56,343 bases of DNA from Oligoflexales bacterium (GTDB taxonomy: Bacteria > Bdellovibrionota_B > Oligoflexia > Oligoflexales > JAGOVF01): positions 1 through 56,343 of the forward strand of contig JAGOVF010000002.1 of assembly GCA_018060885.1 (NCBI GenBank), in the 5' to 3' direction. Below, one piece after another: positions 2,883 through 47,795 of the stretch. A program made the position numbers and the translations under genes. Under the pieces are notes generated by a model. The model searched no databases and was not told the DNA's origin. It saw only the letters and a program-made list of their open reading frames with translations. Numbering within the stretch: the stretch's first letter is position 1; each line of letters starts with the position of its first letter.

Positions 2883-4883
2883 TTAGCTTAATGATTCTGC
2901 AACCACTTCGGCAATATCTTTAACTTGAACAGTATCAGCTTTGCCATGTGCCTTGACCCCATCTGTCATCATGGTCATACAAAATGGACAGGCTGTCGCA
3001 ACCATGTTGGCACCAGTTGCAATAGCTTCTTGAGCTCTATTTTCATTGATGCGGCTACCTTCTTTTTCCTCAAGCCACATCCGGCCACCACCAGCTCCGC
3101 AGCAGAATCCTTTTTCTTTAGTGCGTGGCATTTCAGTCAGTTCGATGTTTGTCGATGTTAAAGACTGACGCGGGCTGTCATAGACATCGTTATGCCGTCC
3201 CAAATAACAGGAATCGTGATAAGTGACGTTTTTAATTGCGTCCGCTTTTGCATTAGGAATAATCTTTTTTTCCTGGATCAATTGGTCAATTAATTGAGAG
3301 TGGTGCATAACTTCCATCTTATGGCCAAAATCTGGGTATTCGTTTTTCAAAGTGTTGAAACAATGTGGGCAGCCTGTCACAACCTTTTTAATGTCATAGC
3401 GCTTAAAGGTTTCGACATTTTCTTGAATTTGCATGTTTGCTAAATATTCATTGCCAAGACGACGTGCGGTATCACCGTTGCATTTTTCTTCTTTGCCAAG
3501 AATTGCAAAATCGAGCTTTGCTTCTTGCATGATCTTAGCGAGAGAAGAGCTGACTTTTTTATAGCGTTCATCAAAAGAACCGGCGCAGCCAACCCAAAAT
3601 AAATATTCCGCTTTCGGATTTTCGGCCATGGTCGGTACTTTTAGTGGTTTTGCCCAATCACCGCGGGTGGAATTGTCCATCCCCCAAGGGTTGCTTTGGT
3701 TTTCGAGGTTGGCAAATGTCGTATTCAATTCTTCCGGAAATTCTGCCTTTGTCATTGTAAGATAACGTCGCATATCTACAATCGCAGGAATATGCTCAAT
3801 CTCTAAAGGGCAAGCTTCCATACAAGCACCGCAGCTGGTGCAGGCCCAGAGTTCTTCTGCAGAAACAATATCTCCTATAAGGCTTTTGCGCTCATCGATT
3901 TTTTCATGTGCGACTGCATCATTTAGTCCATCCTTGAGGTGATGGATCATCAGGCGAGGATCAAGCTTTTTCCCAGTATTAAAAGCCGGACACTCAGCAG
4001 TGCAACGACCGCATTCTACGCAAGTATAGCTATCCAGAAGCTGCTTCCAGCTAAAGTCTTCGATCTTTCCGACGCCAAAAGATTCGGCGTCTTCAGCGAA
4101 CTCCATGGGACGAATGCGTCCGCGTCCGCGCAAGCTGCGAAAAAGCATATTTGGCCAAACCCAAATTAAATGCTGATGCTTTGAAAAGGGTAAAAACGTC
4201 ATAAAACCAAATAATGCGAAGGCGTGTCCCCACCAAAAAAAGTTAGAAAAACTTTGCCAAGCCTCTACAGATTCAATTTGCATTATTGCGGCTAAGTTTG
4301 TAGCGAAGGCGATAGAGATGGGTATAGCGTTGCTTAAAAGATCAGTTTCTGGAAGTTGTGCTTTTGCACCTAATACGATGAGCTCTGTAAATAAAAGAGT
4401 AAAAATAAATCCCAGAACAACAAAAGCATCTTTCTTCGAAGCTTGCGGCAAGGACTTTAAACGTGGCGGAGAAAAAAATAAGCGGCGCAGTATCGCAAAG
4501 CTGATTGCCGCCAAAGCTATAAAATTCGCAAGATCTTGCGAGCTTAAATAAGCGAAATAAATACTGCCTTGGCCGAACAAAAAAGAAAAATTAAACGGCG
4601 GATAGAGCCCCTGAATCAAGGTTTCAAGCGTGCCGATGCTAACAATAATAAAACCCCAAAAAATACAGAAATGCATGACTCCCGCGACTTTGTCCTTAAA
4701 CATTTTTTGCTGTAGGAGGCCTTTTTGCACAATGCCTAGTAGTCGCACATTTAAATTTTCGCTGCGTAGTTCTTCGCGCCCTTTTCCGAGCTGAAACTTC
4801 TGCCAGGTTTTTTTCAAGTTAAAGGCAAAAAAGCCCAATGTCGCTAAACTAAGGATGGCAAATGCAATTGAAGAAATTCCCAA
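2883..4883 (-). CDS. Membrane-anchored (Fe-S)-binding oxidoreductase, heterodisulfide-reductase/GlpC-like
   Basis: The N-terminal ~250 aa is multi-TM. Two 4Fe-4S ferredoxin motifs ([24 protein letters not shown]) and two cysteine-rich CCG-type domains (including FCCGAGGG) are present. Confidence 0.75.
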
Positions 4884-5951: not shown

Positions 5952-8420
5952 TTGTCTAGCAGCTTGAACAAAATTTATAAAGATGTAATTTCGGCCTCGC
6001 AGCGTTTTAAGAAAATAGAGGCGTTTCGGCGAGGTCTGCTGGGGCTTTTTTGTGGATATTTGTTCTTCTCGCTAGCTCTTTTGATCGACCTTAATAGTGT
6101 TGCTTTAGCGCTTTTTGTTTCTATTGCTCTTTCTGTTTTTATTTTTATTTTTAGCAGTCGAGTAAAATTTATTCCATTTACTCAAAATGAGATGCTTTTG
6201 CGCCTCGAACTGCAACATCCAAATTTAGCTCAATCGCCACTAGCCATCAATGATTTCGATGCAGATGCACCAGAAGAGCTGAGTAGTATTTTGGCTGGTT
6301 TTTTTCAAGAACACAAAAAGCAACTAAAAACGCATTCTCACATTGCATGGTCGCGGCTTTTTATTCCCGCCACTCTTTGTTTGGTTTTACATTTCATAAG
6401 CCCTGCAACTCAGGCTTTGCTGAGTCTCGATCTGCAATCTTTAGGCGCATCATGGCGCAAAGATGCGGAACTTGTTATTCATAAAGGTGATGAAGACAAT
6501 CCAAATTCAGAAGTGGCAAGTAAAATAACACTGTCTTTTGCGAAGCCAGCGTGGGTGAATTTGGCTTCAGATAATCTATTAGAGCTTTTAGTAATTGGTG
6601 TTGAAAATATGCCGGCACCAGTTGTCGAGTTGCGTGAGCTTGGTTTCAAAGCAGATCAAACAAAAAAAATTCCCGAATTAGATAAGTTGAAACTTTTTCA
6701 AAGCTTTCGGCTCAGCCGAAATGAAAATCTAGGCAATGGAAGAGTTCTTTATTCGATTAAATTTTCAGTAGAAAAGAGCGTAGCTCTCATTGTGCCTTTT
6801 CTATCAGAAAATAAGCCTGTTGCAGTTTTGCAATTGAACACGCCTCCTTTGCCCGAAGTTGAACTTTCTGTACTCAATCAGTTGCGCTCACCTTGGCCGG
6901 ACCATTTACCGCTCAATTTGAATATAAAAGTAAGTGCGAAAAATCCTCTGGATAAAATCGAAATAAAAATTTATTCAGGAAAAACTGAAAATTCAGAACT
7001 TGTTAATAAAGTCATGGCACAAGAATTATTTGAATATGAAGGCCAATATGAGTTGATATTAGAGTCTTATTTGAATTCCGATCTTGCGGAGTTTAGCTTG
7101 GTCGCTGAGGCAAGTGACCGCGGTTTGCCTCAAGCCCTTGTCGGTCGGAGTAAACCTATAACCATCACGGTAGCAAGCGCCTATGGTCGCTATCGTCAGA
7201 CATTACAGTCGCTCAGAGAATTAAAAACCATCCTAGATGAAAAGATTGCGACTCAGGATGGACTTTTGTCAACAGAAGCCAGCGAAATCATTAAACGCGC
7301 CAACGAGCAGGCGCTGGACTCGCCATTTTTTGACGGACTAGATCGTCTAAACGTTACGCGTTTCGCAACGAACGTAGAAGAATTGAACCAGCAAGCCAAT
7401 ATTGAGAAGCTTTTAGATCTGTCGCAAGATTTGAATCAATTTCTATTAGAGCATGAGCTAATTGATGACCGAGAGCGTGATAGAGATTTTTTCGTAGCCA
7501 CAAGAAGCCTTTCTCGCTTACTTGAAAAAAAAGTGGCAGATAGAAAAACTAGCCTCGAACGCATGGCAACTTCACTAAATAGCTTTTTAGAAGATCGCTA
7601 CAAACGCTGGGAACTTCGCGTTAATCGATTGCCAAAAGAGTTGCAACCTAATGATTGGCCGAAAGTTAAGAATAAAGTTTTTAATGCGAAGTTACAGAAA
7701 GTAGTTGCTGCAGATAAACAGAGCGATGTTAAAGATCGAGATCAAGCTTTTGCTGAGCTCTCGGCGCTCGTGAATGATTATCGTGCATGGATAGAGCAAC
7801 TCGAAGCTCAAGAAGATGCTCATAGAGCTCAACAAGAAGCACAGCGTCAACAGGGCCTTGCTTCCGCGCAGGATTCATTGCAGGAGATACGCAAGCGCCA
7901 AGCGAAAATTTCTCAGCGCTTGGATCAGGCACAGAACCAACAAATCGAGCAGTTAAAAAACAACTGGGGTGCTGACCGTCTTGAGCAAAATACAAACATT
8001 GGAAGTACGCGAAAACTAGAAGCGCAGATGCGCGCTTTGTCGCCACCAGCGGCTGCCAGAATTAAAGCCGCGGCGGAACAAATGCAAGCCACCGTGGATG
8101 CTGCTGCTGGGGGTGAAAAACAAAGTTTTGTGATGGCGGAATCGCATTCCGATCTGGCAGGACGTTTGTTAGTGCAAGCGCAGCAAGCAGCAGAAAAAAA
8201 TCAGCGTCAACAAGGCCAGCAGCGCGGAAAACGGCGCAGAGTAACAGGCGATAATTATTATGGAAATAATTTAATGGAAGGTGGCGAGATCGAGATCATT
8301 CATGAATATGAAGTTGATCGCATGTTCCGCGAAGATGTCCTCGACCAAGTTTCAACTTCCGATTATCTTGATAAAGATGAAGAGCTGTACCGCGCCTATT
8401 TACAGGAAGTTATTCGTTGA
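5952..8420 (+). CDS. Large membrane-anchored coiled-coil / Q-A-rich low-complexity protein (possibly DUF4175-like)
   Basis: The start is TTG. Two N-terminal TM helices are followed by a long helical, Gln/Ala/Arg-rich C-terminal half (QEAQRQQGLASAQ..., QQAAEKNQRQQGQQRGKRRR). No catalytic motif was recognised. Confidence 0.5.
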   Translation: MSSSLNKIYKDVISASQRFKKIEAFRRGLLGLFCGYLFFSLALLIDLNSVALALFVSIALSVFIFIFSSRVKFIPFTQNEMLLRLELQHPNLAQSPLAINDFDADAPEELSSILAGFFQEHKKQLKTHSHIAWSRLFIPATLCLVLHFISPATQALLSLDLQSLGASWRKDAELVIHKGDEDNPNSEVASKITLSFAKPAWVNLASDNLLELLVIGVENMPAPVVELRELGFKADQTKKIPELDKLKLFQSFRLSRNENLGNGRVLYSIKFSVEKSVALIVPFLSENKPVAVLQLNTPPLPEVELSVLNQLRSPWPDHLPLNLNIKVSAKNPLDKIEIKIYSGKTENSELVNKVMAQELFEYEGQYELILESYLNSDLAEFSLVAEASDRGLPQALVGRSKPITITVASAYGRYRQTLQSLRELKTILDEKIATQDGLLSTEASEIIKRANEQALDSPFFDGLDRLNVTRFATNVEELNQQANIEKLLDLSQDLNQFLLEHELIDDRERDRDFFVATRSLSRLLEKKVADRKTSLERMATSLNSFLEDRYKRWELRVNRLPKELQPNDWPKVKNKVFNAKLQKVVAADKQSDVKDRDQAFAELSALVNDYRAWIEQLEAQEDAHRAQQEAQRQQGLASAQDSLQEIRKRQAKISQRLDQAQNQQIEQLKNNWGADRLEQNTNIGSTRKLEAQMRALSPPAAARIKAAAEQMQATVDAAAGGEKQSFVMAESHSDLAGRLLVQAQQAAEKNQRQQGQQRGKRRRVTGDNYYGNNLMEGGEIEIIHEYEVDRMFREDVLDQVSTSDYLDKDEELYRAYLQEVIR

Positions 8421-8750: not shown

Positions 8751-9590
8751 TTAAAAAGAGTCTATAGCGGCACAAAAAAGTTCTTTCGACCATGCGTCTA
8801 GGCGTTGTGGTTGTGTAATAAAGCGCTCGACGTCACGCCTCGCAGCGCTTACATCTAGGTTCTCAACTTGGTCTTTTGCCCAGCAGCGAAATAGCTCTGG
8901 CGAAAAATCGCCCTTCCAATGGCCACTGTCTCTGACTTTCTCTTCCAAATATTGCCAGTTTGTTCTCACTCTTTGACCGACATACCAGAGCACATCGTAC
9001 CAGTCTCGGCCTTTGACATAATTTCTGAGTCCTCGGCAAAATGTCGCATGAATTTTCCCTGCAAATAGGCTAGGGAGATCGCAGGTCAGCACCGAGAACG
9101 GTTGCGGCCAGAAAAATTGTTTTGCTTCAGTTTGGAAGCCAGGAACTGCATCTGTATCAATTTCGATTTTTACCTTAATTAGAGAACCTTTTTGCGCTTT
9201 GAATTTTGATGCAGCAACAATAAAACAAATTTGTGAATCAGTTTTTATAAATGCCGACTCTATTGCAGTTTGAATATTCTTTTCTTTTCTTTCGACCGAT
9301 GCCTCGATATCAAAGCTTTCAAGTTCGTGTTTTATGGCGCGAGTGTATTTGTTTAAGTCGAATTTTTGGTCTTTTTTAAGTAGAGTAAAATCTAAATCTT
9401 CCGAAAAACGATCGAGCCCATAAAGAATGCGTAATGAGGTGCCACCATAGAATGCGGCATGCTCAAAGAACTTTGAACGCCATAAGCCTAATAAGCTAAT
9501 TTCTTGAATCAGCTCTTGTAAGACCATTTTTTCTTGTTCAGTATTCTTGGCGTTTGCTTGTCTTACGCGTTGTTTAATTAGTTCACTCAA
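8751..9590 (-). CDS. AbiEii/AbiGii-family nucleotidyltransferase toxin (type IV TA / abortive infection)
   Basis: N-terminal signature FYGGTSLRILYGLDRFSEDLDF matches the GGTaL...R.SeDlDf nucleotidyltransferase motif of DUF1814/AbiEii. Length is ~280 aa, and the gene sits immediately downstream of a small wHTH-type partner. Confidence 0.75.
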   Translation of the reverse strand: MSELIKQRVRQANAKNTEQEKMVLQELIQEISLLGLWRSKFFEHAAFYGGTSLRILYGLDRFSEDLDFTLLKKDQKFDLNKYTRAIKHELESFDIEASVERKEKNIQTAIESAFIKTDSQICFIVAASKFKAQKGSLIKVKIEIDTDAVPGFQTEAKQFFWPQPFSVLTCDLPSLFAGKIHATFCRGLRNYVKGRDWYDVLWYVGQRVRTNWQYLEEKVRDSGHWKGDFSPELFRCWAKDQVENLDVSAARRDVERFITQPQRLDAWSKELFCAAIDSF

Positions 9591-9605: not shown

Positions 9606-10229
9606 TCATGGCTGTTTAACTTCGCTTTTTAGGGCTTCAAGTAATGTTTTGACAAAGGGTTTACTACTCAATTTACTAAGTGTGACAAGCTTACGGTAGT
9701 TAAACGAACTGTTTATTTCTAGGCGCATATTCTCAAATAAGTATTCTCGCATTAATTCGGGAGAGTCGAGACCTTTGGTATGGTACAAGCGATCAAATAA
9801 AGCTTTTTCGGGTGATGCAATTAAAAAGGCTCTCTGCTCGTCGAGCTCAACTCGCTCGACTCCAAACGAATAACACGATTTTTGTGTGACATTGAAATGA
9901 AATTCACCGATTGGTGTTGAGTAACGCCGTTTACGTAAAAACGCGGTGCTTGTTACCGCAGTGACATGTTCAGGAATCATTCCGTAGTGAGCTAATGCGG
10001 AGTCTTCAGAAACGTATGAAGGACCATAAATCATATTGGCAACTACAAAGCTGTTATAATTGTCATCAGCTTTGATATAAACGCCCTTCTTTACTCGAAT
10101 AATTTCTTTTGACTTTATTAAGGCCCCGATCTTATTTCTTGGATAAGAGTAATCCTCGAGGCGGTTTATAATAATATTATAATCAAATTCAGGTGTTGCA
10201 ATTGATTTTAGGATGTTTTTATGCGGCAT
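9606..10229 (-). CDS. AbiEi-family antitoxin / transcriptional autoregulator
   Basis: A 207-aa ORF lies 15 nt upstream of the AbiEii gene on the same strand, which is the canonical AbiEi-AbiEii order. A perfect palindrome sits just upstream of its start. Confidence 0.6.
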   Translation of the reverse strand: MPHKNILKSIATPEFDYNIIINRLEDYSYPRNKIGALIKSKEIIRVKKGVYIKADDNYNSFVVANMIYGPSYVSEDSALAHYGMIPEHVTAVTSTAFLRKRRYSTPIGEFHFNVTQKSCYSFGVERVELDEQRAFLIASPEKALFDRLYHTKGLDSPELMREYLFENMRLEINSSFNYRKLVTLSKLSSKPFVKTLLEALKSEVKQP

Positions 10230-10268: not shown

Positions 10269-10440
10269 CATAACTTATAAGATAATTCAAGACCTGCAAA
10301 TTGACTAGAAATAGGGTCTCAAAAATATAAAGCCTTTCATGATTGGTATGGGCACTTTGCTTGAAAGTTTGCAGTGCGCATCTGCTTTAAGTAAAATAGA
10401 AGCTAAATCAGTTTCACAAAAATATTTTGGAGTTCAAAAA

Positions 10441-11244
10441 ATGGATTTTTCTGTGCGCTATTTTTTATTCACTATTTTACTAAGTACCTGCCTATTTACG
10501 AAGCACTTAAATGCAGAAGAATCTGATCAAGCGGCTCCGGCTGAGCAAAGTGATCAAGCTCTGTCCACAGATCAAACAGATGAGAGAGAACGAGTCCAGC
10601 AAGTAGAACAGACAATTAATTCTGACTCGAGTAGTACAAGCGCACGTTTAAATAAGAAAGCATCTGTGGAGGGGCGATTGGGGTTTATTGTAGCTCCCAT
10701 TTCAGGCACTGGAGTTGGGGCATTTTTTCATGTGAATCAAAATTTACATGTTGGAATAAGTCATGTCTCAGGAACCTATGATTTTTCAGATGATGTTGAT
10801 GCGCCCGAAGATACGACTTCTACTATGGAACAAGCCGATTTAAAAGCATCGCTAACTCAAGTTTTCGCTCGATATTTTGTCGGCAATTCTTTTTATCTAT
10901 CTGGTGGCTTAGGGCAAAGGAAAGTTCAAGCAGACCTTGATGTACGCTCGACAGTATTTGACCATAGAATTAATGGTTCAATCAAAGCAGATTCAACAGT
11001 TTTAAATGTTAGCATCGGAAATGCATGGAGTTGGGATAACGGATTTTTTATTGGATGTGAGTGGGTTGGTTTGACTGTTCCTCTCTCTAATTCAAACTCT
11101 GGAGAGCTCACTCTAAGTGGAACTGGAGTAGAAGAAGACGCAGAGTTTAAGAAACTTAAAAATGATACTGAAGACGTAGCAGAACTTTTCGGAGAATCGA
11201 CTATGGCCTCTTTATTAATCCTGCATTTAGGCTGGGCTTTTTAA
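10441..11244 (+). CDS. Secreted beta-barrel-like outer-membrane protein, paralog 1
   Basis: GGAG lies 8 nt before the ATG at 10441, and a signal peptide follows (MDFSVRYFLFTILLSTCLFTKHLNA). The C-terminus is LGWAF with a terminal aromatic typical of OMPs. It aligns along its length with the next gene. Confidence 0.55.
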   Translation: MDFSVRYFLFTILLSTCLFTKHLNAEESDQAAPAEQSDQALSTDQTDERERVQQVEQTINSDSSSTSARLNKKASVEGRLGFIVAPISGTGVGAFFHVNQNLHVGISHVSGTYDFSDDVDAPEDTTSTMEQADLKASLTQVFARYFVGNSFYLSGGLGQRKVQADLDVRSTVFDHRINGSIKADSTVLNVSIGNAWSWDNGFFIGCEWVGLTVPLSNSNSGELTLSGTGVEEDAEFKKLKNDTEDVAELFGESTMASLLILHLGWAF

Positions 11245-11245
11245 C

Positions 11246-11929
11246 ATGATTAAGAATCTTTTATTCTCTATATTTTTTCTATTTGGCTGCATAAATACAG
11301 GTGCTTTGCTAGCTGACTCAACTAGTGCGAGTGTGCGCCAGAACAAAAACCTTTCAATCGAAGGCCGCCTTGGATTCATCGTTGGTGCTATCCCCGGAAC
11401 TGGAGCCGCAGTTACGTATCACATGTTTAAAGACTTTCATATTGGAGCGAGTCATGTTGTTGGAGCTATAGATTTAGTGAATGAAATCGAAGAACCGTCT
11501 GGTATCGAAACAGATACAGCCAAATTGTCTACATCAGTGTCGCAAATCTATGCCCGCTACTTCTTAGGTAATTCTTTTTATTTGTCGGGTGGATTCGGGC
11601 AAAGAACGGTCGAAGCGAACGTAGATGTGCGTTCAACTGTATTTGATACTGGAATTGAAGGTTCCATCGAAGCAAGCTCTTCGATTTTTAATGCAAGCTT
11701 AGGTAATGTTTGGAGTTGGGACAGTGGATTTTTCTTTGGCTGTGAGTGGGTAGGAGTGATGGCACCCTTCGCCAATTCAAATTCCGGAGAGCTTACCCTT
11801 AGTGGAACAGCTCTTGAAGAAGATGAAGAATTCAAAGAACTTAAAAAGGACACAGAAGATCTCGCACAGTTTTTCGGAGAGTCGACGACAGCGTCCTTAT
11901 TTGTAGTGCAATTAGGCTGGGCTTTTTAA
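11246..11929 (+). CDS. Secreted beta-barrel-like outer-membrane protein, paralog 2
   Basis: It starts 2 nt after the paralog 1 stop. Shared blocks include RLGFIV, ARYF.GNSFYLSGG.GQR, VRSTVFD, WSWD.GFF.GCEWVG, NSNSGELTLSGT and a C-terminal LGWAF. Confidence 0.55.
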   Translation: MIKNLLFSIFFLFGCINTGALLADSTSASVRQNKNLSIEGRLGFIVGAIPGTGAAVTYHMFKDFHIGASHVVGAIDLVNEIEEPSGIETDTAKLSTSVSQIYARYFLGNSFYLSGGFGQRTVEANVDVRSTVFDTGIEGSIEASSSIFNASLGNVWSWDSGFFFGCEWVGVMAPFANSNSGELTLSGTALEEDEEFKELKKDTEDLAQFFGESTTASLFVVQLGWAF

Positions 11930-24949: not shown

Positions 24950-25735
24950 TTGAAAAAAAAGACGCATTTCATTTTTTTACCATCGTTTGTTTTGCTGCTT
25001 TTAGCCTTGGCCTGTCGCACAGCGACCCACGAAGATAGGAGGCTCGTTGCACCAAAACCAAGTTCAGATGAACCACCCTGTGATAGCTCGCAGACGCAGA
25101 ATTGTCGGCAAAACCCGCTGCCAATTCAGCCTCCGAGTAAAGACTCTGATCGCGATAAAAATAAAAAATTTTCTTGGCCTTTGGCCCGAGTAGCGCCAAA
25201 TACCAATGTGAATTTTAAGTTTGGTGCTCATGTTGGTGGCGAAACTGATCATTTGGCAATCGATATTGCGGCACGTGAAGGTGATTCTATTTACGCAATT
25301 GGAGAAGGTGAGATTGCGGTATTAGCTTATAAAGCAGGGAATTATCTAGATATAGTTGTTGTTAGACATGCTGTACCAGAGCCCGTAGGACCTAATAACT
25401 CGTATTATGTCTACGCTGCTTATTGTCATACAGAAGCAGCTTCTGAGTTGTATGTAGGAAAGAAGGTTAAGCAGGGTGATAGATTGGGTTGGATTCGTGA
25501 AGCACCACCGTATAAACCCCATTTGCATTTTGTGATGTATGATCAGGCCTTTTTCGAGGGCGGCCCGCAGTCGCGGCGTTGCACAGAGCAGGGGATAGCA
25601 AAAGGTTGTCCTCCAGCCGGGTATTTAAATGATTCAAACATAGATTTTTTCGATCGTGATTATATTGTACATCCGCTCAGTCCGACAAAAGGTGCTATTT
25701 TAAATCCTGAGAGATTTATCAGCACTGATAGATAA
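24950..25735 (+). CDS. M23 (LytM/lysostaphin-type) metallopeptidase, lipoprotein
   Basis: HLAIDIAAREGD (HxxxD) and HLHF (HxH) motifs are present, with a signal/lipobox LLALAC. The start is TTG. Confidence 0.75.
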   Translation: MKKKTHFIFLPSFVLLLLALACRTATHEDRRLVAPKPSSDEPPCDSSQTQNCRQNPLPIQPPSKDSDRDKNKKFSWPLARVAPNTNVNFKFGAHVGGETDHLAIDIAAREGDSIYAIGEGEIAVLAYKAGNYLDIVVVRHAVPEPVGPNNSYYVYAAYCHTEAASELYVGKKVKQGDRLGWIREAPPYKPHLHFVMYDQAFFEGGPQSRRCTEQGIAKGCPPAGYLNDSNIDFFDRDYIVHPLSPTKGAILNPERFISTDR

Positions 25736-25774
25736 CTGGGCTATGTGATGCACACATTTTTTAATCGACTTTCA

Positions 25775-25932
25775 TTTAGAAAGCATGGCTAGGCTTGTTT
25801 TGGAGGGAGTGCCAGAGGACCGCTCAATTTTTATGCCATCCATGGCAAAATTATCGCTACGGGTTCGGGCATCCTGCCCTCACCAGTTCCTCTGGCACTC
25901 CCTCCAAAACAAGCCTAGCCATGCTTTCTAAA
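25775..25932. repeat. Giant hairpin 1: 44-bp perfect stem and 70-nt loop
   Basis: 25775-25818 is the exact reverse complement of 25889-25932. The loop is 25819-25888. Confidence 0.9.
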
Positions 25933-26114
25933 GTAACTCTCAGAACAGCGGTTTGTATCACTTAGTTTTAGGCGCTTGAATTGTATCGAACTCCTCAATT
26001 AATTTATTTGGTGTGGAAATTTGCTGTTCGGCAGATCTGCTGCTGAGAGTAAGTTGAAAAACAATTGCTAGAATTGTTGTGATCTGTGAATGCCCCCTGA
26101 ACTGATAGTCACTT

Positions 26115-26258
26115 GAGTCTATAGCTGAGGTCTTGTATTGCCGGCTAGAGGAACTGGTGAGGGCAGGATGCCCGAACCCGTAGCGATAATTTTGCCATGG
26201 ATGGCATAAAAATTGAGCGGTCCTCTGGCCGGCAATACAAGACCTCAGATATAGACTC
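26115..26258. repeat. Giant hairpin 2: 37-bp stem (2 mismatches) and 70-nt loop that is the exact reverse complement of the hairpin-1 loop
   Basis: 26115-26151 pairs with 26222-26258. The mismatches are 26124/26249 (G-A) and 26146/26227 (T-G). The loop 26152-26221 is the reverse complement of 25819-25888 (70/70). Confidence 0.9.
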
Positions 26259-26422
26259 TATGAAATTCGTTTAAAAGTGTGCATCACATAGTCGATAACT
26301 ACTTATATTAGAAAATTTATTTATAAATTTGTGTTAAATCCTCAGGTAGCTGTTCAATGTCTGATCGAACTTCTTTGTTAAAATATTTGAAGATCACTCT
26401 TTAATTATTTGATGGGGGCTTT

Positions 26423-27379
26423 ATGCGTTATTGGGTTGCTGCCTACCTATTTTTTTTCATACAATTTTTCGGGAATTTTGCAGCAGCACAAACAGCACAA
26501 AGTGAAACATATGAAGACTTTTTCGGTGTAAATGTTTTTTCTGAACAGCCGGTCTATTTAAATGATGTTGTAGATATGGGAGCAAAATGGGTTCGTATTG
26601 AATATAGGCTAAAAGGTAAAGATACATTTAATCACTATCGAAATATTATTAATAAGTTAAAACAAAAAAAAATAAAGGTATTGCTCTTGGTTGACTATAT
26701 GTCTACCACAGCGGCAACCCCAGGTTGGAAGGGGACAGATGCACTATGGACTGCATATTTGCCGCACTTTTTGCGCGAGGTCGAATCGATTGCGCAGTTT
26801 CTAAAAAATGATGTCGATGCGTGGGAGGTGTGGAATGAACCTGACCATGAATTAGAAGGTTATGATCCTGGAGTGCCAGCACATATCTTTGGTGTCATGC
26901 TAAAAGATGCGGCTTCACGAATTCGAAAACACAGTAGCAGCCCTCTGGTGATTGGCGGTTTGGCAACCAAGCGTTTCTCGTATTATGAAAATGCCTTGAA
27001 AGCTGCTGGCGGTGATTTGTCGATGTATGACGCCTTGGGCCTTCATACTTATGGTGCGAGTTTTATGACGATGACGACGGTCAAACGAGAGTTAGATTAT
27101 ATTTATAAGAAGTGGTTTGATCTAAGTGGTTTGCCGATTTGGTTGACCGAAGCGGGTGGAGTTGGTGATCCGCAAAACGAAAAATTTGCCGCAGACTATG
27201 TTGAGACTCTATTTACTCATACTTGGGATCAACATCGTGACTATGTAAAAAGAATTTTTTATTTTTCATGGCATGACATTGTCGGGTTTAGGCATGAAAG
27301 GTTTGGCTTAGTTAGATTGAATAATACGCGCAAACCTTCGTTTATAAAGTTTAGAGAGCTAGTGGATAATCCGCGATAG
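26423..27379 (+). CDS. Secreted clan GH-A (TIM-barrel, GH5/GH39-like) glycoside hydrolase
   Basis: WEVWNEPD (acid/base Glu in NEP) and PIWLTEAG (nucleophile Glu) are present, with a signal peptide. Confidence 0.65.
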   Translation: MRYWVAAYLFFFIQFFGNFAAAQTAQSETYEDFFGVNVFSEQPVYLNDVVDMGAKWVRIEYRLKGKDTFNHYRNIINKLKQKKIKVLLLVDYMSTTAATPGWKGTDALWTAYLPHFLREVESIAQFLKNDVDAWEVWNEPDHELEGYDPGVPAHIFGVMLKDAASRIRKHSSSPLVIGGLATKRFSYYENALKAAGGDLSMYDALGLHTYGASFMTMTTVKRELDYIYKKWFDLSGLPIWLTEAGGVGDPQNEKFAADYVETLFTHTWDQHRDYVKRIFYFSWHDIVGFRHERFGLVRLNNTRKPSFIKFRELVDNPR

Positions 27380-37316: not shown

Positions 37317-37910
37317 ATGGTGAACGGCAATATAGTTCTTATAGGAATGCCCGGTAGTGGAAAATCTAAATTAGGCAAACAAGTTTCAAAGCGTCTTGGT
37401 CTAGGGTTTGTTGATCTGGATGAGTTTATTTCAGCGCAAGAAAGATCGACTATTGAACGGTTATTCCGCGAGAAAGGCGAAGTTTATTTTCGTGAGATTG
37501 AGAAGAAGTTTATGAAAGAATTTTTAAAACTGCATTCTCACGTTGTCGTTCTTGGGGGAGGTTCTGTAGTTGATGAAGGTGGTGTCGAAATGATGAATCA
37601 AATTGGTGAATCCTATTGGATAGATGTTGGTATAGATGAACTTAAAAATCGCATGTTACGTAATATAAATGAAATTGAAAGAAGGCCAATGTTTAGGGAA
37701 CTTCTTGGTAAAGATAATTTTGAAAATCTCGTAGTGGAAAGATTGCAAGATTTGTATTTAGCTAGACGAGATTTTTATGCACAGGCCAATTTTCAATTTG
37801 CGGTTAATTATGGATCAGAGGATCAAGTCGCACAAATGTTTTGTAAGCGTTTTTTAGAAAACAGCGCTATAAAACTGCAGGAAGAAAGCGCAACAATTAA
37901 TGCAGAATAG
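37317..37910 (+). CDS. aroK: Shikimate kinase
   Basis: Walker A IGMPGSGKS, the DLD motif and LGGG are present. Its stop overlaps the start of the next gene (ATGCAGAATAG). Confidence 0.85.
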   Translation: MVNGNIVLIGMPGSGKSKLGKQVSKRLGLGFVDLDEFISAQERSTIERLFREKGEVYFREIEKKFMKEFLKLHSHVVVLGGGSVVDEGGVEMMNQIGESYWIDVGIDELKNRMLRNINEIERRPMFRELLGKDNFENLVVERLQDLYLARRDFYAQANFQFAVNYGSEDQVAQMFCKRFLENSAIKLQEESATINAE

Positions 37911-38931
37911 TGCCTCAAATATTAACAGGCTTGTCGACTGGCTCGTAAAGAGTTTTGATCAAGTGGATTGGCTTGCGAATTTGCAATTGGTTAATTGGCG
38001 ACCTGTGACGATTGTTTGCGGAATAAGTTTTCTTTTTGCAAATGTAGCAACAATTTACATTACTAATTTGCTTTTAGATAACGAGCAATCTATGTTTTCA
38101 AATCCTGATTTAGAAATAAAAAATAGTTCCCCACTAGATGCGAGAACCTTAAGCAGCAAAGATATAAAAGATATAATAGACAGAAATATTTTTAATTCGG
38201 ATGGAAAGGTTCCAGATGAAGATGATGAGCAAAAGAAGCAAGGCGGAAAAGGACGGGGGCAGCTAGTTCCAACATCTTTGCCGCTTAAGTTACATGGAAC
38301 TATTTATGGATCGTCTTCGTTAGCTTCAATTGCAATGATTGAAAATACTAGTAAAAGCATTATAAATAGTTTCTTGATTGGCGATCGAATAATAGAAAAC
38401 GCCATTTTAAAAGAAATTCAGCGGGAAAGGATCATACTTGAGCGTGACGGAGTGTATGAATATCTTGACTTCCCAAAACCAGAAGTTTTAGATCGTCGAG
38501 GAAAAAAAGTTTCGACATCGAAACCTAATAGCGCCCTTAGCAGCTTGTCGCCACTTGCGCAGTCGCCACCGCCTCCAGAATATAAAGAAGAGGGATTTGA
38601 AAGAAAAGGTGGGAAGGTTTCAATGACAGGGAGCTTTAAAAATAGAATCTTAGGCGTCGATTTTGCCAAAGTTCTTGCAGATGCAAAAGCAGATCCCTAC
38701 ATAGTTGATGGTGAGATCAAAGGGTATGTACTATCTAAAATTCGAGAGGATAGTATTTATCGAAAGCTTGGACTTCAAGATGGAGACATTATTGATGAGG
38801 TAAATGGTACGCCTTTAGGTGATCCTGCTCAGGCAATCAAGCTACTCAACTCATTAAGAAACGAAGGAAAATTCGAGGTAAATGTTATTCGCAATGGTAC
38901 TAGTGCAAGCTACTCAATAGACGTCAATTAA
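37900..38931 (+). CDS. gspC: Type II secretion system protein C (copy 1)
   Basis: There is one N-terminal TM helix, an HR-region motif IIDRNIFNSDG, and a C-terminal PDZ-like domain (LGLQDGDIIDEVNGTPL...VIRNG). It lies immediately upstream of the secretin. Confidence 0.7.
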   Translation: MQNSASNINRLVDWLVKSFDQVDWLANLQLVNWRPVTIVCGISFLFANVATIYITNLLLDNEQSMFSNPDLEIKNSSPLDARTLSSKDIKDIIDRNIFNSDGKVPDEDDEQKKQGGKGRGQLVPTSLPLKLHGTIYGSSSLASIAMIENTSKSIINSFLIGDRIIENAILKEIQRERIILERDGVYEYLDFPKPEVLDRRGKKVSTSKPNSALSSLSPLAQSPPPPEYKEEGFERKGGKVSMTGSFKNRILGVDFAKVLADAKADPYIVDGEIKGYVLSKIREDSIYRKLGLQDGDIIDEVNGTPLGDPAQAIKLLNSLRNEGKFEVNVIRNGTSASYSIDVN

Positions 38932-38946
38932 ACGATTGGATTTCTT

Positions 38947-39936
38947 TTGGTCGATTTCGAACAAATTTTTCAACTAGATTTTGAAAAGATTCGCAAAAAG
39001 GTGCCGTTTTCTGCTCTGTTTCGCGGTTGTTCCGTCGTTTTTGTTTCATATGTGATTTCTTCCGTCATTTCATCCGTGGCTATGAATATTATGTTGGATA
39101 TTACTTTATCAGCACAAAGCTTTGGTAACACAAGTGCCTCTGGATTTTCTTACAATGAAAAACCAGATTTTCAATCACATCGACAAAATATTATCGATCG
39201 CAATCTTTTTAACTCCGATGGGATCTTTCCTGTAGAAGAAGAAAATTTTTCAGGTGCAGCGAGCGGAGAAAAAAAATTTGATTTAAATGCAGCTTGCAAT
39301 CGTACCAGTCTCAAAGTTGAGTTGGTTGGTACTATCTATACTGGAAATCAACAAACTTCGATAGCTACTGTGAGAGAAGCTGGTATTGAATCGGCAGATG
39401 TATATCGAGTAGGTGACGAAATAATTGAAGGCAATGGCGCAAAAGTTGCGCAAATCGAACAGCGACGTCTGATTTTAAATAATAACGGAATAAAAGAATG
39501 CATTGAATTAAAAGACCAAACGATTGTTGCCTCGAATTTCGCGGCACCTATATCAGACAGCTTAAGTGCGCCGTCTCCGAATACATTAACCGGAGGTCCA
39601 GTTGAAGGCGGCAATTCAAATAGTATCAGTCTTAGTGCGGCTTTTGTAGAAGCAGAATTGGGCCCAGGATTTTCAAAGATAATTCAGGCCGCAAGGATGG
39701 TTCCGAACAGCTTGGACGCATCCATGAATGGCTTCAAAGTTTTCGGCATAAGGCCAGGAAGCTTAATGTCAAAAATATTTCGTGAAGGTGATATTTTGAC
39801 GCAGGTTAATGATGCTAACCTAAGCCAACCTGATCAGGGCTTTGCGTTGTATCAAGCTTTTCAGGATGAAAGAGAAATTCGAATCTACATAGTTAGGGGC
39901 GGAGAAAAAGTTACGGTACAGGTGCAGGTAAATTAG
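38947..39936 (+). CDS. gspC: Type II secretion system protein C paralog (copy 2)
   Basis: The architecture matches copy 1: a TM helix, IIDRNLFNSDG, and a C-terminal PDZ-like FREGDILTQVNDANL...IVRGG. The start is TTG. Confidence 0.65.
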   Translation: MVDFEQIFQLDFEKIRKKVPFSALFRGCSVVFVSYVISSVISSVAMNIMLDITLSAQSFGNTSASGFSYNEKPDFQSHRQNIIDRNLFNSDGIFPVEEENFSGAASGEKKFDLNAACNRTSLKVELVGTIYTGNQQTSIATVREAGIESADVYRVGDEIIEGNGAKVAQIEQRRLILNNNGIKECIELKDQTIVASNFAAPISDSLSAPSPNTLTGGPVEGGNSNSISLSAAFVEAELGPGFSKIIQAARMVPNSLDASMNGFKVFGIRPGSLMSKIFREGDILTQVNDANLSQPDQGFALYQAFQDEREIRIYIVRGGEKVTVQVQVN

Positions 39937-46267: not shown

Positions 46268-47062
46268 ATGACTGTAATTGCAAAGCAGCAAAAAGCTGCG
46301 ACGGGGATGACGCTTATTGAGTTAATCATTGTCGTAGCTCTGCTTGCAGGTGTTATGGTCTATGCACTTCCGAACATAATGCTCAATAAAGAAGCAGAAA
46401 TTCAAACCAAACTAAGCCGACTTCGGGAAGATATTCAAAGCGCATTTGATATGGCGGTGCTTTCTGGTAAGAATTATCGCTTGGTTTTTAGCTTAGATAC
46501 GCAAGAATATTGGTTAGAAGTCGGTTCAGATGAGGGGATGGTAAATTTAGATCCCCTGCGCCTGGGTCGAGATCTTACGGAGTTGGAAGAAAAAAGAGAA
46601 TTCGAGCGTTTTGAAATTGAATTCAAAGATAAATATGAGTCACTAGCTGACGAGCCGGTTAAAGACCCAGAAACAGATAAAGAAATAAAACCAACCAGTC
46701 CAGTCATTCAAGCAAAAAATTTGTTAAGCCCGAAAGAATGGCAGGCTGTGGAAAATTTAGAATGGAGTATTAGAAATTTGGGCTCTGCTTTGGTGTTTAA
46801 GGACATTCAAGCTGAACACCACGCGCAGCGACAAAGTGCAGATAACATGAATGTTGAAGGTCCAAGAGCTATAATCTACGTTTATCCTCGCGGTTATATC
46901 GAAAGAGCGGTTATACGGGTGGCTTATTCCAGCGACGGAGAAAATAATGAAGAACAGCTACCATATTCGCTTGTTATAGAGCCCCATACTGGATCTACCA
47001 GAATGATAGTCGCTGGGGATGAATATGATATAAATAAAGCGGCACAAGATGAAGCAGAGTAG
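46268..47062 (+). CDS. gspH: Minor pseudopilin (GspH position; longer than typical)
   Basis: The prepilin motif is G|MTLIELIIVVALLAG. The assignment is by position after gspG. Confidence 0.55.
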   Translation: MTVIAKQQKAATGMTLIELIIVVALLAGVMVYALPNIMLNKEAEIQTKLSRLREDIQSAFDMAVLSGKNYRLVFSLDTQEYWLEVGSDEGMVNLDPLRLGRDLTELEEKREFERFEIEFKDKYESLADEPVKDPETDKEIKPTSPVIQAKNLLSPKEWQAVENLEWSIRNLGSALVFKDIQAEHHAQRQSADNMNVEGPRAIIYVYPRGYIERAVIRVAYSSDGENNEEQLPYSLVIEPHTGSTRMIVAGDEYDINKAAQDEAE

Positions 47063-47795
47063 TCATGAAAGAGGTCCCTCCCTGCGGGATAAAAATAGCG
47101 AAGCAAGTTTTTCTTTGCTCGAAACTGTTATTGCTTTGGGACTAATGGCTGTTTTTTTGCTTGAAGTTGCTAGTGTGCAAGGCAATGCAATTTATTTTGG
47201 TGAATATGGGCTGAAATCAACCAAAGCAGTTTGGTTAGCCAGACAGGTATTGGCCAAAGTAGAATACGAAGCTCATTTTAGACCTTTTAACGAATTAAAA
47301 GCTTCAATGATGCCCGAAGATGGGTCTGAGTTTGAGAACTTTAAAGAAGAAGACTTTCGCTATAATTTAACTATTGAAGAATGGAAGCTGCCTCTTTTTA
47401 ATTTGATGGGAGGTGGCGGATCAGAAGATGGCGAAGAAGGAGGAAGTGAAGGTGAAGGCGGTGAAGCCGCAGGTGGAGATATGATTAGTGGCGCTATTAA
47501 GCAAGTTTTTGATGGGGAGCCGATGTTTAAAATTGCGAAGGTGGAAATAAGTTGGCCAGAAGGTGCTCATCGCAATAGTGTGGATGCGTCGCTACTGATC
47601 GCAAATCAAATAAAGGTAAATGAGGCTTTTGCAAAATTAGGCTTAAAAGAACCCAGTACAGCAAAAACTGCAAATCCGGCTACAGTACCGGGAGCTACAC
47701 CAGGAACTACACCAGGAACTACACCAGGAACTACACCAGGAACTACACCAGGAACTACACCAGGAACTACACCAGGAACAGAGCAAACTCCTTAG
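47049..47795 (+). CDS. gspI: Minor pseudopilin (GspI-like) with a Gly/Glu insert and a C-terminal (TPGT)n tail
   Basis: FSLLETVIALGLMAV is a type-IV-pilin-like N-terminus with Ser rather than Gly at -1. It overlaps the upstream gene by 14 nt. The assignment is by position. Confidence 0.55.
   Translation: MKQSSHERGPSLRDKNSEASFSLLETVIALGLMAVFLLEVASVQGNAIYFGEYGLKSTKAVWLARQVLAKVEYEAHFRPFNELKASMMPEDGSEFENFKEEDFRYNLTIEEWKLPLFNLMGGGGSEDGEEGGSEGEGGEAAGGDMISGAIKQVFDGEPMFKIAKVEISWPEGAHRNSVDASLLIANQIKVNEAFAKLGLKEPSTAKTANPATVPGATPGTTPGTTPGTTPGTTPGTTPGTTPGTEQTP
47695..47778 (+). repeat. Perfect tandem repeat, 7 x 12 bp (CTACACCAGGAA), in-frame
   Basis: Seven identical copies were counted directly. They encode (TPGT)7 at the C-terminus of the gspI-like ORF. 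Confidence 0.95.

Follow-up and report, generated by a model that had tools for sequence, protein, structure and literature searches.

Two long hairpins that lie between positions 25775 and 26258 of a 56,343-nt stretch of DNA from an Oligoflexales bacterium (contig JAGOVF010000002.1; this whole stretch is referred to as the window) are almost certainly members of the known family TwoAYGGAY (RF01731). They stand as a divergent inverted pair, which is the usual form of the family in canonical and divergent members alike, and the pair is very probably a mobile insertion. We prefer to read the whole composite as a foldback element that is mobile and that encodes, in its arms, an RNA module for binding CsrA/RsmA, although we rate this reading a little short of probable.

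The region from 25000 to 27000 was scanned with the covariance models of Rfam 15. RF01731, which has a gathering score of 43 bits, was matched over its full model length (1-168) on the minus strand at 25777-25930 (44.0 bits) and on the plus strand at 26114-26259 (41.6 bits, 1.4 below the cut-off), and the first of these is the sole Rfam match at gathering threshold in the whole 56-kb window. An initial annotation, made from the sequence alone, could not match the hairpins to a known architecture and had itself called for an Rfam scan, which now matches both of them. Its description of the anatomy was accurate and the twin hairpins are real, its stems of 44 and 37 bp around 70-nt loops differing from ours by one extra closing pair. 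Among its alternatives, that of a structured non-coding RNA or single-stranded DNA (ssDNA) element family proved right.

The arms of hairpin 1 were returned by a repeat search as 45 nt with 100% complementarity and those of hairpin 2 as 38 nt with 95%. The core common to both is an 86-nt inverted repeat (25811-25896 / 26144-26229) of 99% identity (85/86), present in two copies in the window where 0 are expected by chance. Folding of the 571-nt region gave z = -22.6 relative to dinucleotide shuffles. In the predicted fold each core forms two small hairpins, GGGC-AGGAU-GCCC (A) and GCC-AUGGAU-GGC (B), within a long P1 helix, and the GGA motifs of the two loops are 33 nt apart within each unit. 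The AUGGAU loop of hairpin B, within GCCAUGGAUGGC, fits AYGGAY. Hairpin A (GGGCA-GGAUGCCC) has the loop AGGAU, which lacks the Y and is one base short of AYGGAY; such A(N)GGA variation is also found in other members.

The closing P1 stem of TwoAYGGAY has been described as "often very large" (Weinberg et al. 2010, PMC2864571) and its external stem as "not well conserved" (Gardner and Eldai, PMC4333381), so that the literature already characterises the family by a constant core enclosed in a stem that varies yet is always paired. The window units share with it the long closing P1 helix, the junction and the two small hairpins with A(Y)GGAY loops. They differ in loop A, in scores that lie at the threshold, and in the absence of the third small hairpin of Clostridial members. 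The published range of the motif is the human gut, gamma-proteobacteria and Clostridiales, whereas GspE of the window is 70-85% identical to proteins of Pseudobacteriovorax, Oligoflexales and Bdellovibrionota, which places the Oligoflexia-like host outside those taxa and makes its phylum a new one for the motif. No close relatives of the window core were found by blastn against all fetched loci, a metagenome scan with a lineage-tuned core pattern gave 2 matches only, both unrelated, and the 631-bp region of the window had no match in plasmid or phage collections. The motif itself is not new, while its mobility and paired layout seem to be undescribed so far; they are absent from the original description (PMC2864571) and from PMC4333381.

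A probable insertion at an M23 peptidase gene

Two relatives available as Logan contigs (L153, L154) have the same gene order as the window, alpha/beta-hydrolase, M23 peptidase, glycosyl hydrolase and M14 peptidase, with a glycosyl hydrolase 92% identical and flanking DNA about 83% identical to those of the window. The intergenic region between the M23 peptidase and glycosyl hydrolase genes is about 127 nt in L153 and L154 and 687 nt in the window, and the whole unit is absent from the relatives. Homology to L153 by blastn breaks at 25737/8 and restarts at 26291, with a 10-nt overlap on L153 (TCGATAACTG). The empty site contains a single copy of GATAACTG, in ...ATCGATAACTGCG..., and has the junction ...CCGATCGATAACTGCGCAAAATAG..., whereas the window reads ...CTGATAGATAACTG / GGCTATGTGATGCACAC... 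at the left junction and ...GTGTGCATCACATAGTC / GATAACTACTTATATTAG... at the right, the slash marking the breakpoint.

The arms of the insert (Table 1) are inverted repeats of about 85% identity. They contain an outer inverted repeat of 19 nt (25741-25759 / 26273-26291), in which the terminal inverted repeat CTATGTGATGCACAC, at 25741 and 26277, is matched at 15/15 positions, or at 16/17 when an extra G(G/A) is counted. Terminal inverted repeats together with a 7-10-bp direct repeat that is single in the relatives are the anatomy of an insertion of the miniature inverted-repeat transposable element (MITE) or foldback type, and the event would have been an insertion rather than a precise deletion or excision. 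Where the initial annotation had seen the opposite of a MITE, the pair as a whole behaves like one. Besides the core, about 20 nt 5' of each stem and about 35 nt 3' can be aligned as homologous between the units, which implies that the duplication took in more than the stem-loop. The "leader" of about 32 nt that had been noted before each unit is indeed shared, but in the orientation of the Rfam model it follows each unit on the 3' side, and it represents the terminal inverted repeat of the insert. Nor are the stems demonstrably unrelated between the two copies, as had been stated, since the alignment score of their non-shared parts exceeds that of 96% of shuffles (p ~0.04), a marginal homology.

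Table 1. Window positions of the TwoAYGGAY pair, its parts and the presumed target-site duplication
Feature	Position	Strand	Description
Left target-site duplication	25731..25738	.	GATAACTG; perfectly duplicated part GATAACT 25731-25737
Left duplication, 10-nt reading	starts 25729	.	TAGATAACTG
TAA stop codon of M23 peptidase gene	25733-25735		inside left duplication
Whole insert	25739..26293	.	553-555 bp; two inverted arms of ~195-215 nt and central spacer
Left terminus	25739..25774	-	terminal inverted repeat GGCTATGTGATGCACAC and rest of ~35-nt 3' trailer of unit 1
TwoAYGGAY unit 1	25775..25932	-	P1 stem 25775-25819 with 25888-25932, 45/45 paired
Unit 1 hairpin B	25834-25847	-	14-mer, loop AUGGAU; core of unit 1
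Unit 1 hairpin A	25867-25879	-	GGGCAGGATGCCC; core of unit 1
Central spacer	25933..26114	.	182 nt between 5' ends of the two divergent units; no open reading frame
TwoAYGGAY unit 2	26115..26258	+	P1 stem 26115-26152 with 26221-26258, 36/38 paired (one U.G, one G.A)
Unit 2 hairpin A	26161-26173	+	core of unit 2
Unit 2 hairpin B	26193-26206	+	14-mer; core of unit 2
Right terminus	26259..26293	+	3' trailer of unit 2, ending ...GTGTGCATCACATAGTC; present in L032
Right target-site duplication	26294..26301	.	GATAACTA; 10-nt reading TCGATAACTA from 26292

A second filled and empty site was found upstream of ppc in Pseudomonas. A pair of 727-893 nt is present there in L147, L157 and L158, the gene adjoining the L147 pair being ppc (876 aa), and is missing from L159 to L165, in which ppc is 93-95% identical and the corresponding region is 180-240 nt with a single GTCCCTTCGTCGTCTT / GCTTGTAAG. 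The L147 insert begins ATGCCGTTGGGG and finishes CCCCAATAGCAT, which are inverted termini. The termini at the ppc locus are ATGCYRTTGGGG, and the flanking repeat (TCCCTTCGTCGTC / TCCCATCGTCGTC) is about 13-14 bp, 12/13 identical in L147. One GGCATGGG repeat at the left terminus distinguishes L157 from L158. The centres of Pseudomonas pairs (L102, L109, L147, L149 and L157, e.g. L157 2860-3090) contain microsatellites of GCTGTT, GCTCTT, GCTTT and GGCTCT, a conserved TTTTGATCTTGATCT that adjoins each unit, and palindromes resembling repetitive extragenic palindromic (REP) sequences.

Small MITEs that fold as RNA hairpins (ERIC/IRU, Correia/NEMIS, RUP, BOX) and foldback elements resemble the TwoAYGGAY pair in being small, non-coding and intergenic, with terminal inverted repeats, target duplication, filled and empty polymorphism and repeat families within genomes (the last in five other genomes). 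They differ in that TwoAYGGAY arms are about 200-330 nt, each with its own long hairpin and a core conserved across phyla, and in that the TwoAYGGAY elements have no known cognate transposase and have termini and repeat lengths that vary by lineage. The lack of similarity to plasmid and phage collections also sets the window version apart from them. When target duplications were sought automatically in 23 other pairs, only internal palindromes (CCTAGG, TGTACA) were returned, which are artefacts, and the ends of Clostridial pairs are nested palindromes that can be delimited only with empty sites.

Divergent pairs and paralogues across the family

A search with a degenerate core pattern yielded 31 loci on viral contigs and at least 118 in genomes. 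From 22 diverse copies a covariance model was made, and 100 sources were scanned with it. These sources contain 30 divergent pairs (minus left, plus right), 0 convergent and 3 tandem arrangements, together with 40 copies that are unpaired although their surroundings were long enough to reveal a partner. Many pairs are related by descent, so the 30:0 ratio does not represent 30 independent trials, but it spans at least four distant lineages; divergent pairs occur in Pseudomonas, Xanthomonadales, Clostridia and the window. The gap between the model hits of a divergent pair is 76-862 nt (median 274 nt). Divergent Clostridial pairs are also found by RF01731 itself, in L052 (121 and 114 bits), L040 (104 and 96) and L084 (65 and 50), and the gaps of Clostridial pairs, 145-215 nt between model hits, compare with 183 nt in the window.

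No pair encloses a gene, and the largest gap, of 862 nt, consists of REP-like repeats. Open reading frames (ORFs) within 2.5 kb of more than 100 copies were clustered, and no linked protein recurs among them beyond families of orthologous context, namely MutS, prophage repressors, a Mu-like transposase, DUF6124 and an ABC transporter. A cluster of nine loci labelled "CheB/CheR kinase" was an artefact of single linkage.

Several members have features of their own. In Clostridial copies (L040 5150-5800, L054 ~4000-4250, L112, L146 and L078) the closing helix runs at least 30 bp past the 168-nt model, which, together with the nested palindromes in the L040 flanks, indicates that the true hairpins are much longer than annotated. 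In the IMG/VR contigs L006, L011, L021 and L028 a Mu-like prophage (MuA transposase, S24 repressor) adjoins the 5' (inner) side of the unit, and about ten other viral contigs have a TwoAYGGAY unit with mutS on one side and the repressor of a prophage or tailocin on the other. The centres of pairs may be permissive or attractive to other mobile DNA. A C4 antisense RNA (RF01695, 58 bits) lies at 6369-6454 of L102, about 350 nt from the pair and within an ORF with a DUF6124 domain, and similar ORFs recur in 15 loci. In L146 (1344-1497 and 6098-6179) two tRNA genes are placed directly upstream of the solo unit at 1625-1791, and a ZTP riboswitch is found elsewhere in the locus.

Five genomes contributed two loci each, and their paralogous copies are 85-91% identical over whole arms including the stems. 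Between the arms of other pairs the identity of the core ranges from 54 to 100%; this region-wise comparison of arms is crude, and the "broken pairs" that it counts are mostly indels of the left-right alignment rather than real mismatches. In Luteimonas salinisoli the paralogous elements L042 5299-5571 and L096 7575-7847 are about 90% identical, and in one of them hairpin A of the right arm is the left arm's version, as a fully compensated block. This swap is a patch of gene conversion between arms. The sharp-edged 86-nt identity of the window is best explained as a conversion tract of the same kind and, given the patch seen in L. salinisoli, conversion would account for it better than extreme purifying selection. 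The solo copies of Pseudomonas libanensis, L049 82-329 and L071 6537-6791, are 91% identical, and L049 is without the conserved 3' trailer of L071, so that solo units are heterogeneous and some are truncated.

Possible function and alternative explanations

Across the copies, 96.7% of the small-hairpin cells are paired, compared with 79.4% in shuffles, and at 13/17 pairs both bases vary. The score for covariation, 0.368 compared with 0.076, is reached by 0/500 shuffles, and this covariation indicates that a single-stranded fold is under selection. A particular strand is favoured by the conserved purine-rich loops and by folding energies, the sense strand being 6-10 kcal/mol more stable than the antisense strand (-112.3 and -106.5 kcal/mol for unit 1; -91.4 and -81.3 kcal/mol for unit 2). 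Psychromonas sp. SA13A (L050) carries two same-strand copies 1.6 kb apart (6101-6262 and 7775-7936), both with the promoter-like TTGAAA-N18-TACAAT 23-24 nt upstream and an AT-rich hairpin after the unit, although a consensus scan is weak evidence. Psychromonas is the only lineage here with such gene-like transcription signals. The units are presumably transcribed.

Both loops read CA(N)GGAUG, and CAGGAUG is identical to the CsrB repeat. The loops also fit the CsrA consensus from SELEX (systematic evolution of ligands by exponential enrichment) and the RsmE consensus (A/U)CANGGANG(U/A). CsrA dimers bridge sites 10-63 nt apart, and the spacing of the two loop GGA motifs in each unit falls within this range. 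Rfam clan CL00106 holds both TwoAYGGAY and CsrB, and TwoAYGGAY has been proposed, from its two loop motifs, to sequester CsrA (Gardner and Eldai, PMC4333381). A TwoAYGGAY unit could well be a CsrA/RsmA-binding RNA, but the doubt that attaches to this is considerable. Like the sponges CsrB, RsmX, RsmY and RsmZ, the units have GGA motifs in hairpin loops; they differ in having two sites each, where the sponges have 5-22, in their giant perfect closing stem and in being multi-copy, inverted-paired and mobile. The window yielded no promoter of the GacA/UvrY type and no terminator, and CsrA binding is here a prediction.

In the mechanism that we propose, a non-autonomous MITE or foldback insert of about 555 bp would have integrated at the stop codon of the M23 peptidase gene, duplicating 7-10 bp (GATAACT[G]). 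Each arm, read outward from the centre, would form a long P1 helix with two small hairpins at its end, and their A(N)GGA loops could offer two binding sites to a single CsrA/RsmA dimer. The module would most likely act as a decoy or recruitment RNA that binds CsrA, and it would spread as mobile DNA. The identical block of 86 nt would be a gene-conversion tract between arms, and the near-perfect, arm-specific stems would be kept complementary by a similar DNA-level homogenisation together with selection for pairing. P1 may be a stabilising stalk or possibly, as speculation, a stalk for RNase III processing. It is more doubtful whether TwoAYGGAY is generally the cargo of a multi-phylum family of foldback elements that spreads CsrA/RsmA-binding decoys, or whether the nested palindromes serve an unidentified DNA-level machinery of mobilisation or homogenisation.

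If the proposal is true, the element would be a mobile post-transcriptional regulator that places new loci under Csr control or titrates a global regulator. TwoAYGGAY has been an orphan since 2010, with one CsrA-sponge hypothesis, and its pairing, insertion and repeat-family behaviour would recast the motif as part of a mobile element. Tractable carriers exist in Pseudomonas frederiksbergensis, P. kilonensis, Psychromonas and Lachnospiraceae isolates. Should the CsrA link fail, the element would still be a model for the upkeep of perfect nested palindromes in bacterial DNA.

A number of results speak against a mobile element with CsrA-binding arms. G.U pairs make up 4/1661 cells of the small hairpins, a proportion no less compatible with a palindrome in DNA than with a helix of RNA, and in the outer stems there are 111 G.U pairs in the sense and 91 in the antisense direction (sign test p = 0.32), hence no bias of the RNA type. 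Scans around the window units gave no convincing sigma-70 promoter and no terminator, which is weak evidence, and a transcript across both arms is predicted by folding to form pairs between the arms rather than the local fold. No CsrA-like ORF (csrA) was found within the 56 kb, and only one TwoAYGGAY element is visible in this part of the host genome. No cognate transposase with matching ends was found in the window or beside the copies, and neither the termini nor the lengths of the repeat (7-10 bp and ~13-14 bp) agree between the two documented insertions. The 7-nt repeat alone is not unusual, an equal score being reached by 44% of shuffles; its weight comes from its place at the breakpoints. 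Lastly, in term counts of a bioRxiv preprint (10.64898/2026.09.22.753630) TwoAYGGAY is mentioned 52 times and CsrA not at all, and this preprint may propose a different and better-supported function.

Some of these results would be expected of a purely DNA-level element, the main rival explanation, which we regard as rather unlikely. By analogy with REPINs and their RAYT transposases, the ends of IS200/IS605 and integron attC sites, the hairpins would be ssDNA or cruciform recognition structures for a transposase or recombinase acting in trans, and the RNA motif a by-product. The near absence of G.U from the covarying hairpins, the symmetry of the outer-stem mismatch spectrum between strands and the lack of promoter or terminator in the window agree with it, as do the perfect 45/45 palindrome stem, the insertion polymorphism with terminal repeats and the behaviour of the copies as a repeat family. 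REPINs in particular are likewise inverted doublets of a structured unit with long hairpins, chromosomal, intergenic, multi-copy and mostly without a linked gene. REP units are about 20-35 nt, however, and REPINs are not known to leave a target duplication; nor are Y1/HUH ssDNA transposases or attC recombination known to make one, whereas TwoAYGGAY has one. Neither the window nor the neighbourhood of any copy showed a RAYT/Y1 gene, and the REP-like palindromes in Pseudomonas are separate insertions within the centre of TwoAYGGAY pairs. More generally, no transposase, recombinase or other protein family recurs beside the more than 100 copies and none is present in the window, which also has no integrase or cassette array of the kind found with attC sites, the element lying between housekeeping-type genes. 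The termini differ between lineages while the core is kept across phyla, which makes the core an unlikely end-binding site. The purine-rich loops and the G.A-rich internal loop of Pseudomonas copies are strand-specific, the sense strand folds better, and Psychromonas copies have promoter-like signals, all of which count against a purely DNA-level element. A retron-like or other non-coding RNA associated with a reverse transcriptase (RT) is very improbable. Long variable hairpins are typical of retron msd, but Pfam detected no RT (no RVT domain), integrase or transposase among window ORFs of at least 150 aa, so the earlier statement that the window has no RT, integrase or TnpA/TnpB holds for all ORFs of that size, and the RT signature (QG..SP then Y.DD) is absent from 157 sequences, 1.2 Mb of TwoAYGGAY loci including the window. 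The suggestion came from the long variable stem and from the preprint cited above, in whose abstract TwoAYGGAY and, by elimination, "reverse transcriptase" occur, and whose term counts give 14 mentions of reverse transcriptase, 5 of ssDNA and 5 of defense; in the same counts "TwoAYGGAY RT", "TwoAYGGAY-RT", "TwoAYGGAY reverse" and "TwoAYGGAY-associated" do not occur and the topics may be separate, nor do sRNA, transposon, "mobile genetic" or "inverted repeat" occur.

Other explanations concern the stems. According to the initial annotation the long stem might be an exchangeable, guide-like specificity module around an invariant core, in keeping with a window core that is 85/86 identical while the stems differ, and with family stems that vary yet always pair. 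This is now largely refuted and highly improbable. The stems are shared by paralogues in the same genome, the stems of the window have no match in 2.3 Gb of phage and 7.3 Gb of plasmid sequence (the lone hit had E = 0.8), and the core varies between the arms of other pairs as well; the stems are for these reasons not specificity modules. Both are also fully self-paired and not free to pair with a target, and no effector protein is associated. Conserved stems in further copies had been named beforehand as the mark of an ordinary MITE and as evidence against the modular scaffold, and they are seen in five genomes. An 86-bp micro-element that entered the apex of two pre-existing palindromes, or a recombination that made each palindrome around the core, would account for the identity that stops sharply 8 nt into the stems, and the perfect stems do suggest recent templating of one arm from the other. 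It is nonetheless very improbable, because there is no palindrome at the empty site of the relatives, which lack the 555 bp as a single block, and because the two units also share sequence beyond the stems, while the stems are marginally homologous and a conversion tract, as seen in L. salinisoli, explains the sharp boundary. That the locus is an assembly artefact or a chimeric inverted duplication is hardly credible. Inverted repeats are well known to cause misassembly, and the independent Logan contig L032 (SRR11088468) begins inside hairpin 2, as expected of a short-read assembler at an inverted repeat. From 26202 onward this contig equals the window with 0 mismatches in 5229 nt, reproducing the 3' arm of hairpin 2, its trailer, the terminus and the flank, so the right half of the locus is no artefact, and the same architecture occurs in complete genomes of other phyla.

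Surroundings of the element

The gene content of the window is that of an ordinary chromosome and includes bioBFDA, a type II secretion cluster, an amylase and several peptidases. A gene for an AbiEii-type nucleotidyltransferase toxin and an upstream partner ORF without Pfam match (8751-9590 and 9606-10229, both on the minus strand) are probably a type IV toxin-antitoxin or abortive infection (Abi) pair. A 300-nt direct repeat of 71% identity (10847-11146 and 11532-11831) extends across the adjacent ORFs 10339-11244 and 11246-11929, neither of which has a Pfam match and which resemble tandem paralogues. The type II secretion cluster is headed by two GspC-like genes in tandem (37900-38931 and 38947-39936). 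Within this cluster, ORF 47049-47795, without Pfam match, contains near its 3' end (47663-47791) about nine head-to-tail copies of the 12-nt unit ACCAGGAACTAC, which form a coding microsatellite.

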